From Escherichia phage FP43, in the sequence record MN648445: 64,000 nucleotides of DNA, one strand, 5' to 3'. Position numbers and translations under genes: made by a program. Positions 17,942 through 41,063 of this stretch are shown here, one piece after another. The notes beneath the pieces were generated by a model. That model worked only from the letters and a program-made list of their open reading frames with translations. It was not told the DNA's origin and ran no database searches. Each line of letters begins with the position of its first letter. Position 1 is the first letter of the stretch.

Positions 17942-18934
17942 ATGTTACCTGTCATCAGAAAACTTATTTCTCCAAAAGAACTGGCTGAGATTATTCCTTT
18001 GTCGGAAGCTTACGCATCACAAGTGGCTTCTCATCGCGAACAAGTTAATTCGATTATGAACGGTGAAGACCCACGCAAACTTATTGTTGTAGGTCCTTGT
18101 TCAATTCATGACCCTATTGCTGCTGTTGAATACGGCAAACGTCTGGCTGAACTTCAAACTCGTCTTCCTAATGTTCTGTTAGTGATGCGCGTTTATTTTG
18201 AAAAGCCTCGAACTACCGTAGGTTGGAAAGGTCTTGTAAATGATCCATATCTTGACGGAAGTTTTGATATGAACCACGGTCTTATAGTTGCACGAACATT
18301 GTGTCGTAAACTTCTACGTATGGGACTTCCATTAGCAACTGAAGTATTAGACCCATTCACGATTAAGTATCTTTCTGGTATTTTCTCATGGGTTGCTATT
18401 GGCGCCCGTACGACTGAAAGTCAGACACATCGTGAAATTGCTTCGGGTCTACCGATGTGCGTAGGCTTCAAGAACGCAACCAATGGTTCTATTAAAGTAG
18501 CTACAGACGCGATGTATAGTGCCGCCTGGCCTCATCGGTATATGGGTATGGACGTCGATGGTACTGTAGGCATTGTTGAAGCTGAAGGTAATCAGAATAC
18601 GCATATCGTATTGCGTGGCGGGACCAACGGCCCGAACTATCATTCTTCTGATATTCAAGAAGCTTCTAACAAAGCAAGGGCAGTAGGTCTGAATCATTAT
18701 GTAATGGTTGACTGTAGCCATGCAAACGCTGATGGGCATTATAGCAATCAAATTGGTATTGGTAAAAATTTAGCAGCTAATGATTTGGTCAAAGGAATTA
18801 TGATAGAATCATTCCTACATGAAGGAAATCAAAAAATTTCCGATAATATGTCCTATGGCGTTTCCGTTACCGATGCGTGCATCAGTTGGGAACAAACTAA
18901 AGAGCTGTTAACTTATATTAATAAGGTTCAATAA
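17942..18934 (+). CDS. 3-deoxy-7-phosphoheptulonate (DAHP) synthase, class I (AroG/AroF/AroH-like)
   Basis: 330-aa ORF with motifs VGPCSIHDP, LVMRVYFEKPRTTVGWKGL, IGARTTESQTHRE, GFKNATNGSIKVA, DCSHANA, ESFLHEGNQ, TDACISWE that align along E. coli AroG as recalled; RBS AAGGA; stop overlaps cd start. Confidence 0.85.
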   Translation: MLPVIRKLISPKELAEIIPLSEAYASQVASHREQVNSIMNGEDPRKLIVVGPCSIHDPIAAVEYGKRLAELQTRLPNVLLVMRVYFEKPRTTVGWKGLVNDPYLDGSFDMNHGLIVARTLCRKLLRMGLPLATEVLDPFTIKYLSGIFSWVAIGARTTESQTHREIASGLPMCVGFKNATNGSIKVATDAMYSAAWPHRYMGMDVDGTVGIVEAEGNQNTHIVLRGGTNGPNYHSSDIQEASNKARAVGLNHYVMVDCSHANADGHYSNQIGIGKNLAANDLVKGIMIESFLHEGNQKISDNMSYGVSVTDACISWEQTKELLTYINKVQ

Positions 18935-19870: not shown

Positions 19871-20203
19871 ATGTCTGAAGTACAACTCCCAATTCGTGCT
19901 GTTGGTGAATATGTCATTCTGGTTTCTGAACCCGCTCAAGCAGGTGATGAAGAAGTTACCGAATCAGGACTTGTGATTGGTAAACGTGTTCAAGGTGAAG
20001 TTCCTGAACTATGCGTAGTTCATTCTGTAGGTCCTGATGTTCCTGAAGGTTTTGTTGAAGTCGGTGATTTGACTCCACTACCAGTTGGACAAATTCGAAA
20101 TGTTCCACATCCATTTGTGGCTTTGGGACTTAAACAACCTAAAGAAATTAAACAGAAATTCGTAACATGCCACTATAAAGCTATTCCGTGTCTTTATAAG
20201 TGA
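19871..20203 (+). CDS. 31: Head assembly co-chaperonin gp31 (GroES functional analogue)
   Basis: 110-aa [36 protein letters not shown] matches T4 gp31 by recall. Confidence 0.9.
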
Positions 20204-20327
20204 TATAAATAACTATATGAAGAGAACACTCTTCTAAGCGGTAGCCTACAACTGAGAGACTTGTCGAAAGAAGGTGAAATTCAGACGAACGTGGCTACTA
20301 AATATTATCTCGAATTGAGAATTTAAA

Positions 20328-20576
20328 ATGATTAAACAATTACAACACGCTCTTGAACTGCAACGCAACGCATGGAATAACGGTCACGAAAACTACGGCG
20401 CGTCAATTGATGTTGAAGCCGAAGCACTGGAAATCCTGCGTTATTTCAAACACCTGAATCCTGCTCAGGCTACTCTGGCTTCTGAACTGGAAGCTAAAGA
20501 TGAATTGAAATATGCTAAGCCTCTGGCTTCTGCAGCACGCAAAGCAGTTCGTCATTTTGTTATTACCCTTAAATAA
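20328..20576 (+). CDS. rIII: Probable lysis inhibition accessory protein RIII
   Basis: 82-aa ORF at the position and size of T4 rIII. Confidence 0.65.
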   Translation: MIKQLQHALELQRNAWNNGHENYGASIDVEAEALEILRYFKHLNPAQATLASELEAKDELKYAKPLASAARKAVRHFVITLK

Positions 20577-20870
20577 GTTTTAGGTGATTCGCTACCTTAG
20601 TGCGGCTAGAAAATCGAGGAGCCGTCGAACTGTCTGATTAATGATTTGCGAATCATTATAGTTTTAAGACCCCGGCAGTTTTACGGTGTACCTCTTGAAT
20701 GTATTTTATACTATCACGCGTCAGAAAAAGGTTATCTGTCTAAGTCGTGGTTGGTATGATGACGGGTTTATGGTTATCCTGTCGTTAAATATCCAAAACC
20801 TATGTTCCCCTTGAGGGCTTGCGCAGGCAATGTCAATAAGTCCTGCATTTTCATTTAAAGAGAATTTATA

Positions 20871-21050
20871 ATGGCAAAACAAGCTAAAGCAAAGAAAGCA
20901 GTTGAAAAGAAAGTTGATGGTACCTCTAAACGCGCTGGATACAAGCGTGGGTCGAACTCTCGTATTAATCAAACAGTTGAGAAGATCATGCGCAGAGCAC
21001 GTGCAGTTCTTCGAGATGATGCTTCTCGTTTTGGAAAGGTTGTTGCATAA
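20871..21050 (+). CDS. Small lysine-rich basic protein (59 aa), unannotated in the ORF track
   Basis: ATG 20871 to TAA 21048-21050; MAKQAKAKKAVEKKVDGTSKRAGYKRGSNSRINQTVEKIMRRARAVLRDDASRFGKVVA; followed at 6 nt by a strong terminator. Confidence 0.45.
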   Translation: MAKQAKAKKAVEKKVDGTSKRAGYKRGSNSRINQTVEKIMRRARAVLRDDASRFGKVVA

Positions 21051-21055
21051 TTTTA

Positions 21056-21077
21056 GGGAGACTTCGGTCTCCCTTTT
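21056..21077 (+). terminator. Rho-independent terminator
   Basis: GGGAGAC-TTCG-GTCTCCC followed by TTTT; identical stem-loop to the gene 32 terminator. Confidence 0.75.
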
Positions 21078-21109
21078 GTGCGTTTAGGGCAGAAAAAGTT
21101 TAAAAAGAT

Positions 21110-21138
21110 GTTTACTCTCCTGTAGGATGTGTTACTAT
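21110..21138 (+). promoter_or_regulatory. Early promoter
   Basis: GTTTAC 21110-21115, 17-nt spacer, TGTGTTACTAT ending 21138. Confidence 0.6.
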
Positions 21139-21180
21139 AGACTTGTACCATCTAATCAATAAAACAACCTGGAGAACAAA

Positions 21181-21549
21181 ATGAAAATCAATCTGAACTC
21201 ATACATCAAATGTAAAGACCACGACGGTTATAAAGCTATCGAAATTAAAGAATTCCAGTGGATGTTATACAAAGAGCAATTTGAGATCGTAAGTTGTATG
21301 ACCCCTGAAGGTCCTTCAAATGATTTCTCTTGGAAAATTGTGTTAGCAAACTTTTTCACAGGTGACACATACGAATTAAAAACTATTATTACAGGTAAAA
21401 TTCGCTCAGAAACATATGTTGACGAAGAAACTGGTTACTCTGAAGATGTCACATGGTATCAAAATGGACGCATTACAGCAGATAACCTGATCGAAAAAAT
21501 GAAAGCCAAAGGTGTTTTAAATTTAGACAATTGGATTAAAGTTGCATAA
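21181..21549 (+). CDS. Hypothetical protein
   Basis: 122-aa ORF with own promoter and RBS GGAG. Confidence 0.5.
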   Translation: MKINLNSYIKCKDHDGYKAIEIKEFQWMLYKEQFEIVSCMTPEGPSNDFSWKIVLANFFTGDTYELKTIITGKIRSETYVDEETGYSEDVTWYQNGRITADNLIEKMKAKGVLNLDNWIKVA

Positions 21550-21553
21550 AACA

Positions 21554-21593
21554 GTTTACTTTGGTACAGGTTATGTTATTATAGACCTGTACC
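21554..21593 (+). promoter_or_regulatory. Early promoter with -10 embedded in the loop of a perfect 8-bp inverted repeat
   Basis: GTTTAC 21554-21559; GGTACAGG (21563-21570) / CCTGTACC (21586-21593) flanking TTATGTTATTATAGA containing TATTAT. Confidence 0.6.
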
Positions 21594-21623
21594 AACAAAC
21601 AACTTAAACATCTGGAGAATAAA

Positions 21624-21989
21624 ATGAACTACATCAACTTCGAACGCAAATATGTTTCTAACGGTATCGCTGGTTCTTCTGAAGTTATTTGCTTATGGAA
21701 ACATAAAAATGGTTCAGTATGTGAAATTGAGCAGTATATGACTCCTAATTACGTTTATATGCGATTTGAAAATGGCATCACGGTTTCAATCACGATGGAA
21801 GGTTCCAACTTCAAAATTGCATTAGATGACGATTTCCGTCAGCGTGATTTAGGTACTCATCCTTGCTGGAATGGTGATAATCGTAAACTTCTGGTTAAAA
21901 CTTGGATTCGTCATATCCTGAGTAACCGAGCTAAACCTGAACATCTCGAAGCAATCTTTGATGTAGTTCTTAATGAATTCGATATCTAA
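21624..21989 (+). CDS. Hypothetical protein
   Basis: 121-aa ORF with RBS GGAG. Confidence 0.5.
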   Translation: MNYINFERKYVSNGIAGSSEVICLWKHKNGSVCEIEQYMTPNYVYMRFENGITVSITMEGSNFKIALDDDFRQRDLGTHPCWNGDNRKLLVKTWIRHILSNRAKPEHLEAIFDVVLNEFDI

Positions 21990-39644: not shown

Positions 39645-41063
39645 ATGGCTTTTACAGTTAATATAAATCCTAAAACACCTACTGGAGTTATAGGACAGAC
39701 CCAGCAGTTTACTGCCACACCTAGTGGTCAGGCTGAAGGTGGAACTATTACATATGCTTGGACTTTGGATGGTGTTCCGCAAGATGGAGCTGAAGCAACT
39801 TTTAGTTATGTACTAAAAGGACCTGCCGGTCAAAAGACTATTAAAGTAGTTGCAACAAATACAGTTCCAGAAGCTGAAGCTGAAACAGCAGAAACTACTG
39901 CAACTATCACAGTTAAAAATAAAACTCAGACAACTACTCTGGCTATAACTCCTGATAGCCCTGCTGCTGGAGTAATCGGAACAGCTGTTAAATTTACTGC
40001 GGCTTTAGCTTCTCAACCGTCAGGCGCATCTGCTACGTATCAATGGCACGTTGACGGTTCTCCTGTGAGCGAAGCAACTTCTGCTACATTCAATTACACT
40101 CCTACCACAAGCGGAGTTAAAAAAATTAAATGTGTAGCCCAAGTGACGGCAACAGACTATGACACAAAAGAAGTTACTTCTAATGAAGTATCACTGACTG
40201 TTAATAAAAAGACACAGACAACTACCTTGGCAGTAACTCCTGATAGTCCTTCAGCTGGAGTAATTGGAACCCCAGTTCAATTTACTGCTGCCTTAGCTTC
40301 TCAACCGGCTGGAGCGTCTGCTACGTATCAGTGGTATGTAGATGATTCACAAGTTGGTGGAGAAACTAACTCTACATTTAATTATACTCCAACTACAAGT
40401 GGAGTAAAAAGAATTAAATGCGTAGCCCAAGTAACTGCTGAAAATTACAATGAAAAGGAAGTTACTTCTAATGAAGTATCATTAACGGTTAATAAGAAGT
40501 CAATGAATCCACAGGTTACATTGACTCCTCCTTCTATTAACGTTCAGCAAGATGCTTCAGCTACATTTACCGCTAATGTCACTGATGCTCCAGAAGAAGC
40601 GCAAATTGAATATTCATGGAAGAAAGATTCTTCTCCTGTAGAAGGGTCAACTAATGTATATACCGTTGATACTTCATCTGTTGGAAGTCAAACTATTGAA
40701 GTGACTGCCATCGTTACTGCAGATGACTATGATAGCAAAACTATTACAGCAGAAGGTCAAGTTCAAGTGACTGATAAAGTTGCTCCGGAACCAGAAGGTG
40801 AATTACCTTATGTTCATCCTCTTCCACATCGTACTTCAGCTTACATCTGGTGCGGTTGGTGGGTTATGGATGAAATCCAAAAAATGACTGAAGAAGGTAA
40901 AGATTGGAAAATTGACGATCCAGATAGTAAATACTACCTGCATCGTTATACGCTTCAGAAGATGATGAAAGACTATCCGGAAGTTGATGTTCAAGAATCA
41001 CGTAATGGATACGTCATCAATAAAACTGCTTTAGAAACTGGTATCATCTATACATATCCATAA
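39645..41063 (+). CDS. hoc: Head outer capsid protein Hoc with tandem Ig-like domains
   Basis: 472-aa ORF with repeated ~95-aa Ig-like modules and a conserved C-terminal capsid-binding region; longer than T4 Hoc (376 aa). Confidence 0.8.
   Translation: MAFTVNINPKTPTGVIGQTQQFTATPSGQAEGGTITYAWTLDGVPQDGAEATFSYVLKGPAGQKTIKVVATNTVPEAEAETAETTATITVKNKTQTTTLAITPDSPAAGVIGTAVKFTAALASQPSGASATYQWHVDGSPVSEATSATFNYTPTTSGVKKIKCVAQVTATDYDTKEVTSNEVSLTVNKKTQTTTLAVTPDSPSAGVIGTPVQFTAALASQPAGASATYQWYVDDSQVGGETNSTFNYTPTTSGVKRIKCVAQVTAENYNEKEVTSNEVSLTVNKKSMNPQVTLTPPSINVQQDASATFTANVTDAPEEAQIEYSWKKDSSPVEGSTNVYTVDTSSVGSQTIEVTAIVTADDYDSKTITAEGQVQVTDKVAPEPEGELPYVHPLPHRTSAYIWCGWWVMDEIQKMTEEGKDWKIDDPDSKYYLHRYTLQKMMKDYPEVDVQESRNGYVINKTALETGIIYTYP
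39925..40505 (+). repeat. Tandem duplication of ~290 bp inside hoc (Ig-like domain repeats)
   Basis: Near-identical protein segments TTLAITPDSPAAGVIGTAVKFTAALASQP...SNEVSLTVNKK repeated twice, with a third diverged copy. Confidence 0.7.

Follow-up and report, generated by a model that had tools for sequence, protein, structure and literature searches.

A mosaic array of predicted RNA modules, two of them resembling type III antitoxins, in the rIII-30.9 spacer of T4-like phages

The rIII-30.9 spacer and the genes that frame it

We analysed a stretch of 64,000 nucleotides from Escherichia phage FP43 (sequence record MN648445), which is referred to in its full length as the window. The stretch comes from a T4-like phage of the genus Mosigvirus (RB69/ATK47-like), and the region studied here is 99.7% identical to phages ATK47 and ATK48 and 97–98% identical to many RB69-like phages. 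The genes are ordered cd, 31.1, 31, rIII, 30.9, 30.8 and 30.7, all on the + strand, with a gap of 294 bp between rIII and 30.9 (20577-20870, + strand) that separates the rIII stop at 20576 from the conserved start ATG at 20871. A first-pass annotation, made from the sequence alone, had drawn attention to this gap and suggested that it could hold a small RNA, a structured 5' untranslated region (5' UTR) or a decayed gene. Comparison with related loci indicates that the gap is an array of RNA modules, designated D, E, F, A and C in their order in the window. What the earlier annotation missed is that two of these modules, D and A, are, judged by sequence and pairing, homologues of the bacterial type III antitoxin RNAs ToxI and TenpI.

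The description of the gap itself proved accurate, in that no conserved open reading frame (ORF) was found in its 294 bp when related loci were compared. The upstream cistron is rIII (20328..20576, + strand, 82 aa), so annotated in ATK47, T4 and RB69. The Lys/Arg-rich ORF of 59 aa that follows the gap (20871..21050, + strand) is also real, as proposed, and its diversity of 0.21/0.17/0.37 at the three codon positions over 37 distinct alleles is a coding signature. It had been called unannotated, but it is a known gene, 30.9 (synonym 31.-2), annotated in T4, RB69 and ATK47, and its basic product is a member of phrog_1427 (E=2e-31). The gene is kept in every related locus with the invariant motif SKRAxYKR; gp30.9 matched no Pfam family and contains no ToxN domain. 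The unit formed by rIII, spacer and 30.9 is closed by an intrinsic terminator (GGGAGAC-TTCG-GTCTCCC-TTTTGT, 21056..21079, + strand), which had likewise been recognized from the sequence. Its stem covaries in relatives (GGACTCC/GGAGTCC, GGGAACC/GGTTCCC) and a terminator is annotated at the matching site in ATK47 and NRG-P0074; a simple terminator scan did not pick up the 21056-21079 hairpin. An overlapping minus-strand ORF (20721-20972) had been suspected to be spurious, and it is indeed broken by stops and frameshifts in T4.

Conservation and modular build of the spacer

A spacer of 120–420 bp lies between rIII and 30.9 in all related loci, and 43 distinct versions of it were read and their motifs scored. 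Between the window and T4, the surrounding genes are 88% (gene 31), 87% (rIII) and 91% (30.9) identical and the neighbouring spacers 70% (31-rIII) and 60% (30.9-30.8), compared with 97% for each of two gap segments (20613-20705 and 20757-20870). By this measure the gap is the best-conserved DNA of the neighbourhood. In T4 coordinates, 20577-21080 corresponds to 130,364-130,785. Its minimum free energy as a whole is unremarkable (z-score -0.6) and, because the folding energy of the whole gap is not unusual, the signal is comparative rather than thermodynamic. The first-pass annotation had proposed to look for conservation and covariation across related phages; both were found, on the sense strand. 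It had also proposed a search of Rfam, which yielded no family for the gap: matches for 20000-21700 (E up to 10, riboswitches included) were at chance level and outside or unrelated to the modules, and eight related loci gave none (E up to 1). No tRNA was found in the region by a tRNA scan, and the records examined carry no RNA annotation in the spacer.

Among phages, the spacers differ by short modules that are gained, lost and reordered. The order is D-E-F-A-C in the window, D-E-A-C in T4 and E-F-A-C in RB69, and other phages show D-E-B-A, A-D-B, B-A and A-B. Module A occurs in all 43 spacers, D in 21–24, E and B in 20 each and F in 12. One slot is particularly variable: it is occupied by module F in the window, empty in T4 (a 51-bp indel) and filled with the 135-nt module B in three other loci (L049, L050 and L060). 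Each module of the gap is single-copy within the 64-kb window. Covariation is found on the sense strand in three modules (D, E and A), and G-U pairs rule out the opposite strand. The spacer is thus, on this comparative evidence, a sense-strand array of independently folding RNA modules.

Module E (20616..20694, + strand) is predicted to form a branched rod of about 25 bp, identified by paired cells and two-sided changes in the alignment. Its helices are P1 (20616-19/20691-94), P2 (20621-25/20683-87), P3 (20627-34/20674-81) and an apical hairpin P4 (20639-46/20651-58) that reads TAATGATT-tgcg-AATCATTA. The perfect hairpin at 20639-20658 that had been singled out earlier is therefore real, and it forms the tip of this rod, in which changes are compensatory. 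Overall, 99% of cells are paired and five pairs are changed on both sides (0/500 shuffles), against 25–63% of cells paired in slid controls. P2 contributes a G:C to A:U exchange for which a G-U intermediate is seen, and the tip hairpin of locus L057 contributes two compensatory replacements; invariant G-U pairs set the module on the + strand. A second pairing suggested earlier, between CGGCT (20603-20607) and AGCCG (20620-24), did not hold up: the two arms are complementary but not conserved as a pair, with RB69 lacking the 5' arm and T4 mismatched, and they belong to the better-supported ToxI-like unit and to helix P2 of module E.

Module F (20706..20752, + strand) would form a two-tier hairpin with an outer stem at 20715-18/20746-49 and an inner stem at 20720-25/20735-40; the inner stem changes from CAGA/UCUG to CAGC/GCUG in locus L058, which with five distinct variants is weak support. 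Module C (20807..20846, + strand) would consist of two hairpins just upstream of the 30.9 ribosome-binding site, namely C1 (CCCC-TTGA-GGG, 20807-17) and C2 (GCAGG 20823-27/CCTGC 20842-46), the latter with the conserved loop CAATGTCAATAAGT. Phages of the T-even and Mosigvirus group share GCAGG/CCTGC as their C2 stem and L063 and L054 have AACTGG/CCAGTT with the loop unchanged (two haplotypes, read by eye), and a C1-like GTACCC..GGGCTTG recurs in most spacers and, also by eye, is separable from C2. Between module C and the 30.9 start, at 20851-20860, the ATK47 record carries an 'ori type 2 repeat', a 10-bp pattern annotation to which no supporting feature corresponds. Resemblances to a C/D box, a k-turn and a CRISPR repeat (UGAUGA; GTTCCCC; TTCACTGCC in T4) were dropped by eye as short chance matches.

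Module B, of about 135 nt, lies outside the window and reads GCGGCAAGTGCATGC...GCTAACGGTGTGCAACAGATAAGAGC. It is found, for example, in phage JS98 (NC_010105.1, 131218-131354, - strand) and at spacer positions ~120-255 of locus L037. The module is single-copy in 407 genomes of T4-like phages of Klebsiella, Escherichia, Enterobacter, Yersinia and Citrobacter, with 90–100% identity across genera, and is mostly unannotated or labelled 'hypothetical protein'. Three hairpins that covary were recognized in it by eye, together with a pseudoknot of the kissing-loop type (UGAUGG/CCAUCA, CGAUGG/CCAUCG, CUAUGG/CCAUAG, CAAUGA/UCAUUG). No match to module B was obtained in Rfam, in plasmids or in bacterial genomes (0 in a pattern scan of 185,579 species genomes).

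Several features of the wider neighbourhood were observed in passing. Gene 30.8 (21181-21549) is much more divergent than its neighbours, with 58% nucleotide identity to T4 and 67% to RB69, compared with 89–96% for 30.7. The gene directly upstream of cd (~17942-18934) is annotated in ATK47 as DAHP synthase (AroG-like), an unusual metabolic gene in a T4-like phage. At 39909-40484 a 288-nt unit is duplicated in tandem, the second copy being 78% identical (repeat family D1). T4-type early promoters (GTTTAC...TGnTAnnAT) followed by short palindromes recur at 21100-21140, 21555-21582, 6449, 17524, 28455 and 44079, both in the run of small genes that comes after 30.9 and in other parts of the window (repeat families D4, D5 and D13); we take them to resemble the promoter-stem-loop cassettes of T4-type hyperplastic regions.

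Relatives of ToxI and TenpI in the spacer

In bacteria, a type III antitoxin RNA is made of tandem repeats upstream of the gene for a ToxN or TenpN endoribonuclease; the toxin cuts the RNA into units, and each unit binds the toxin and silences it. Infection by a phage halts renewal of the labile antitoxin RNA, and the RNase toxin that is then released aborts the infection. All type III antitoxins are H-type pseudoknots with single-stranded tails (PMC5086642).

Module D (20582..20615, + strand; AGGTGATTCGCTACCTTAGTGCGGCTAGAAAATC) was identified as a single ToxI-like pseudoknot unit by its similarity to ToxI repeats and its kept pairs. When the gap was searched against 5,426 complete E. coli genomes, matches were obtained for gap positions 1-43 only, all of them on small plasmids and in 2–4 copies per plasmid. 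The matched sequences are tandem repeats that immediately precede genes carrying the label 'type III toxin-antitoxin system ToxN/AbiQ family toxin' and are, judged by sequence and position, the ToxI antitoxin array. The module D unit (34–36 nt) is 86–89% identical to the ToxI repeats of enterobacterial plasmids (84–89% over 33–45 nt by BLAST); the repeat of pDEC4E-2 reads AGGTGATTTGCTACCTTTAAGTGCAGCTAGAAATTT and is present in about 5.5 copies, and that of pU90-1 reads AGGTGATTCGCTACCTT(T)AAGTGCGGGACGAAAATCT. The version of module D found in Klebsiella phages matches 65 plasmids with 2–15 repeats each. The reverse search, with a dimer of natural ToxI as query, returned 250 phage genomes, including Mosigviruses at the exact site of module D (89–92% identity, E 3e-4 to 4e-3), and a ToxI profile matched window positions 20579-20617 (E=4e-12 in the gap set). 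According to the same profile no spacer holds a second ToxI unit. The 3' half of module E was considered as a second, degenerate ToxI repeat and rejected, since the profile finds module D alone even at E up to 100.

The pairing scheme of ToxI (S1 positions 2-5/12-15; S2 positions 9-11/23-25) was inferred from its published description (PMC8860590). In module D, S1 pairs 20583-20586 with 20593-20596 and S2 pairs 20590-20592 with 20602-20604. Across four natural and ten phage units, 98% of the pseudoknot pairs are kept, compared with 27–57% in slid controls, and three pairs show compensatory double changes (UGC/GCA to CGC/GCG to CAC/GUG; G:C to A:U in S1). The 3' tail of the module, GCUAGAA, holds C27 and U28, at which single substitutions abolish ToxI activity (PMC3475682), and is followed by GAAAAU, the kind of motif cut by ToxN (PMC8860590). 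In the window sequence (GCUAGAAAAUC) the tail is identical to that of pDEC4E-2 ToxI and the GAAAAUC motif to that of pU90-1 ToxI. The tandem array, the terminator and the toxN gene are not present, the next gene being 30.9; as a single unit with no adjoining toxN, module D would therefore be an orphan mimic and not a toxin-antitoxin (TA) locus.

Units of this type are not confined to T4-like phages. The 250 phage genomes with ToxI-like units include, for example, Pectobacterium phage DU_PP_I (100% identity over two repeats, in two places), Salmonella phages SE131 and Kenya-K42, Escherichia phages FH3 and EcP-vB, Klebsiella phage pKMKP103 (about two repeats) and Vibrio phage JSF10. RNA antitoxin mimicry may, on such matches, be widespread among phages. 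We also observed that in E. coli pDEC4E-2 (NZ_CP038399.1) a RefSeq 'hypothetical protein' coding sequence at 2480-2707 is laid over the non-coding ToxI array upstream of toxN.

Module A (20753..20806, + strand), an H-type pseudoknot with TenpI-like features, is the one module present in 43/43 distinct spacers. In the window, S1 is formed by GACGGG (20761-66) and CCTGTC (20778-83) and S2 by GGTT (20772-75) and AACC (20797-800), with an A-rich loop, GTTAAATATCCAA, at 20784-96. S1 covaries among 33 distinct variants, with forms such as GACGGG/CCUGUC, GUGGAC/CCCCAC, GUCGUGG/CCAGAC and GUCAUGG/CCCGAC. The second stem joins five nucleotides from the hairpin loop to nucleotides that follow a conserved CAAAAC, as in GUUGG/CCAAC, GAUGG/CCAUC, AGUAG/CUACU, GUGAG/CUCAC and CAAGG/UCUUG; in the window and the T-even phages this S2 is short (GGUU/AACC). 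Together the two stems are 82% paired, compared with 64% in shuffles (0/500), and the covariation score is 0.454, compared with at most 0.117 for slid partners. G-U pairs place the structure on the + strand.

In the published description of the tenpI antitoxins, a conserved stem 1 is combined with an adenosine run and a stem 2 that covaries, and two non-identical repeats are often present (PMC12283969). On the Klebsiella pneumoniae plasmid named in that study, we located an unannotated tenpN ORF with residues R36, Y38, R55, H60, G75, D77 and K80. The two repeats upstream of it (...GTGGCGGTAGGAATGAGCCCCACGTAAAAAAAACAAGCTTCC... and ...GTGCGGTAGAGTTCGCCACACGTAAAAAATCCAAGACTC...) follow the plan of module A and share CCCCACGTAAAA and ATCCAA with it. 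Nine more tenpN loci, on plasmids of E. coli, Edwardsiella, Tatumella, Enterobacter, Klebsiella, Yersinia, Serratia and Pantoea, were added to the comparison. Natural tenpI repeats carry S2 haplotypes such as GGAA/UUCC, GGAUGUU/AGCAUCC, GAACA/UGUUC and GAGUU/GACUC.

Homology was assessed in both directions with covariance models, one (R1) built from phage module A sequences alone and the other (R2) from 15 natural tenpI repeats alone. R1 detects both tenpI repeats in 10/10 plasmid loci, always a short way upstream of tenpN and on its coding strand; of its 25 matches, the 16 best are tenpI units (best 25.1 bits, E=0.0016), and it found nothing comparable in two toxIN loci. R2 in turn matches module A in 14/23 phage loci, with a best score of 22.5 bits (E=0.0035) for locus L041 and 14.2 bits for T4. 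Module A of L041 is 77–81% identical to natural tenpI and the copy in the window, which scores 69.5 bits with R1, is 68–73% identical. Reciprocal matching of this kind makes homology between module A and tenpI well supported at the level of the family. Module A is nevertheless a single orphan unit, with neither an adjacent tenpN gene nor a pair of repeats set between promoter and terminator. Module F was rejected as a diverged second TenpI-like repeat: R1 does not detect it, and it has only GGTTATC-TGTC in common with A.

A pattern scan for the module A motif gave 0 matches in 185,579 species genomes, and a viral scan returned T4-like contigs only. Plasmids and E. coli genomes searched by BLAST yielded nothing beyond chance matches in coding regions for modules E, F, A, C and B, and E, F, C and B had no match in the TA loci compared. 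A preQ1-I or other pseudoknot riboswitch was considered for module A and dropped, there being no Rfam match; its A-rich tail recalls the preQ1-I pseudoknot, though the loop is without a conserved ligand-pairing C.

The bacterial loci are unevenly annotated. In the K. pneumoniae plasmid NZ_CP056218.1 the 154-aa TenpN gene (- strand, start 287) runs across the record origin and is for that reason absent from the gene table; none of the annotated ORFs of this plasmid is TenpN. In several other plasmids an annotated 'hypothetical protein' begins far upstream and covers the tenpI repeats (for example 536-1162 in locus L091). No NCBIfam model for ToxN or TenpN was found.

Possible roles of the array and comparison with known systems

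The array has no conspicuous signals of its own for transcription. Promoter-like TTTTAC/TATACT elements had been pointed out in the gap, but they stand 21–22 nt apart, the -10 element is absent from T4 and no site in the gap passes the threshold of our promoter scan. The best alternative register pairs TTTACG (20680-85) with TATTTT (20702-07) across a 16-nt spacer and matches at 8/12 positions, below the scan threshold; its candidate -10 element is absent from T4. Among the published T4 middle promoters, none falls in the interval from P30.2 to P31 (PMC2988021). GGGCTTG was tried as a MotA box and rejected for lack of conservation, C1 not being followed by a consistent -10 in other phages. No terminator was found inside the gap. 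Early, middle and late promoters all contribute to rIII expression in T4 (PMC9409239). With no conserved promoter or terminator in the gap, this range of rIII promoters and a strong terminator after 30.9, we infer that the array shares its transcripts with rIII and 30.9 over the whole course of infection.

We favour the interpretation that the spacer provides orphan type III antitoxin decoys and constitutes an RNA counter-defence locus co-transcribed with rIII and 30.9, to which we assign a probability of roughly 0.55. It builds on what the alignments and models establish about the spacer, namely its conservation, its covarying structure, its strand and its homology to ToxI and TenpI; that D and A are transcribed, processed, bound by toxin and in any way protective is inferred. 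More specifically, the array would be read as part of the rIII-to-30.9 unit, ending at the 30.9 terminator, so that the phage would supply its own antitoxin-like pseudoknots D and A throughout infection. These RNAs could keep a matching ToxN or TenpN sequestered, or buffer it, and they could also serve as a seed for expansion or recombination under selection, as in phage PhiTE, where the expanded pseudo-ToxI holds ToxN down in infected cells (PMC3475682). Modules E, F and C would perhaps be decoys for other systems, or processing and stability elements for the array and 30.9.

A number of observations weigh against decoy function. Both D and A are single copies, and in PhiTE the wild-type 1.5 repeats are inactive and need expansion (PMC3475682). 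Module D of the window is two loop nucleotides short of natural ToxI, one of them among the two A-minor adenines, and the canonical cleavage site directly 5' of the unit is absent. The T4 copy has one broken S1 pair, the sole type in which a pair is broken, and a shortened 3' tail. T4 itself is sensitive to E. coli ToxIN and escapes by means of a protein, TifA, and not an RNA (PMC10853763); TifA is gene 61.4, and gp30.9 is therefore not TifA. Module A of the window scores 7.7 bits with R2, which is the best match within 20500-21100 but is not significant and not among the top matches in the whole window. This copy appears to be a diverged member with a different S1, and its assignment, transitive through the phage family, is weak. 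Antitoxin-toxin pairs are, moreover, highly specific (PMC5086642). Module A is universal in phages of many hosts, and its partner could equally be a phage factor, or its role one in cis on rIII or 30.9. Finally, modules E, F and C, which make up over half of the gap (about 180 nt), match no antitoxin.

The main rival, doubtful for the array as a whole yet the strongest of the alternatives, is a cis-acting intercistronic leader, whose modules would control translation, processing or stability of the rIII/30.9 mRNA and owe their antitoxin likeness to ancestry only; for C, E and F it may well apply. One possible variant takes the gene 32 pseudoknot as its model: a pseudoknot in the spacer would serve as operator for gp30.9, which is small and basic enough to make RNA binding plausible. 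The T4 gene 32 leader offers the precedent of a pseudoknot operator (PMC3014915), the spacer is without promoter or terminator of its own, and module A always stands beside rIII and 30.9, in 43/43 spacers. Furthermore, C2 adjoins the 30.9 ribosome-binding site, where a weak AUUUUC/GAGAAU pairing, noticed by eye, could mask the Shine-Dalgarno sequence. However, the distance between module A and the 30.9 start ranges from about 60 to >300 nt; the module may precede or follow others and in some phages comes right behind the rIII stop, and this variable position excludes direct occlusion of the ribosome-binding site. The structured 5' UTR that had been proposed for 30.9 thus survives as to structure and fits poorly as a plain leader, the order of the modules and their distance to the 30.9 start being shuffled. 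Control in cis also leaves unexplained the homology to two different host antitoxin families and the retention of the ToxI toxin-contact tail, and D, E, F and B are each dispensable in some phage.

The decoy interpretation can also be widened. The spacer would then be a general modular RNA counter-defence island in which every module, including E, F, C and B, is a decoy for a different RNA-neutralised or RNA-guided host defence, modules are swapped by recombination according to host range, and gp30.9 is a possible partner that stabilises or loads the RNAs; we regard this generalisation as rather unlikely.

Less probable again is an origin as scars without function, in which the antitoxin-like units were left behind when T4-like phages recombined with toxIN or tenpIN plasmids and are carried along in a recombination-prone spacer. 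The mosaic spacer with its variable insertion slot would fit such an origin, as would the slight degeneracy of module D in T4 and in the window, the scatter of single ToxI-like units over many unrelated phages and the gain of toxI by recombination in PhiTE-F (PMC3475682). Scars are expected to decay, yet the modules are the best-conserved DNA of the neighbourhood, both pseudoknots keep their pairs by compensatory substitutions across genera, and module A is retained in every spacer.

We consider it improbable that the gap holds one or more independent small-RNA genes with a promoter of their own, acting by base pairing in trans or as a riboswitch-type sensor. The weak sigma-70-like match at 20680-85/20702-07 and the preQ1-I-like A-rich tail of module A could be taken in its favour, but, as described above, the promoter match is below threshold and absent in T4, and the interval has no internal terminator, no T4 middle promoter, no tRNA and no Rfam family. 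The small-RNA option of the first-pass annotation is accordingly upheld as far as structured RNA goes (D, E and A covary) and not as a self-standing gene. A decayed protein-coding gene or a leader peptide is very unlikely, for although small + strand ORFs are present (37 aa at 20646-20759, 42 aa at 20686-20814 and a 10-codon ATGATG... frame at 20757), they have no PHROG match, single-base indels separate T4, RB69 and the window, indel lengths downstream of 20757 are not multiples of three, the ATGATG...TAA frame is by eye not kept in other phages, and variation tracks base-pairing and not codons.

If orphan antitoxin decoys are indeed what the spacer encodes, type III antitoxin RNA mimicry, so far shown in one Pectobacterium phage, would turn out to be conserved throughout a phage subfamily and would extend to TenpIN, for which no phage counter-measure was found in the literature searched. 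The counter-defence would take the form of an RNA array with exchangeable parts, and there would be a rule to predict which T4-like therapeutic phages beat plasmid-borne abortive-infection systems; T4 and its relatives are reference phages for molecular biology and phage therapy. The analysis further points to strongly conserved structured RNA in module B (about 135 nt) and in E, F and C together (about 180 nt). No mention of a ToxI- or TenpI-like RNA in T4-like phages or in the rIII-30.9 spacer was found in the literature searched, which included the T4/toxIN papers and the 2025 tenpIN survey, and no description of the spacer elements was found in the literature on the spacer, gp30.9 or T4 non-coding RNAs.

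Among known systems, several pursue the same presumed aim or share the same fold. TifA/61.4, which acts on ToxN, and Dmd, which acts on RnlA, belong to the same phage group and likewise neutralise an RNase toxin set free on infection, but they are proteins encoded elsewhere, whereas the rIII-30.9 locus is RNA. The gene 32 leader pseudoknot of T4, T2 and RB69 is, like module A, a covarying H-type pseudoknot in a T4-type mRNA leader; it occupies a fixed position and nucleates cooperative binding of gp32 that reaches down to the ribosome-binding site, whereas module A is variable in position and a tenpI homologue.

The bacterial antitoxins are closer. ToxI of ToxIN (Pectobacterium atrosepticum pECA1039; E. 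coli pDEC4E-2 and pU90-1) is an H-type pseudoknot with an S1 of 4 bp and an S2 of 3 bp and, as in module D, a GCUAGAA tail followed by an A-rich cleavage motif. It differs in having 3–15 tandem repeats, a terminator and toxN, where module D is single, with a loop 2 nt shorter and no canonical 5' cleavage motif. TenpI (PMC12283969; NZ_CP056218.1, NZ_CP042553.1) shares with the phage family a GUGG-type stem 1, a loop that holds the 5' strand of stem 2, an A-rich loop with the motif CGU(U/A)AAA...CCAAA, a stem 2 that covaries and the reciprocal covariance-model matches. Here the differences are that tenpI has two repeats and tenpN, and that module A of the window and the T-even phages has GACGGG/CCUGUC as stem 1 and a short stem 2 (GGUU/AACC).

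The nearest counterpart is the pseudo-ToxI of phage PhiTE, which is also a ToxI-like sequence in a phage intergenic region without a toxin; its RNA is expressed in infection, mimics a type III antitoxin and evades ToxIN abortive infection (PMC3475682). PhiTE is a Pectobacterium phage and not T4-like, and its wild-type locus of 1.5 repeats, with the inactivating changes C27G and U28A, works only after expansion to 4.5–5.5 repeats or capture of toxI. Module D, in contrast, is one full unit that keeps C27 and U28, shows compensatory changes across several genera and stands in a composite array. A phage RNA that mimics a type III antitoxin is thus already known from PhiTE, and what is new here is a composite array with a TenpI-like unit across a subfamily.

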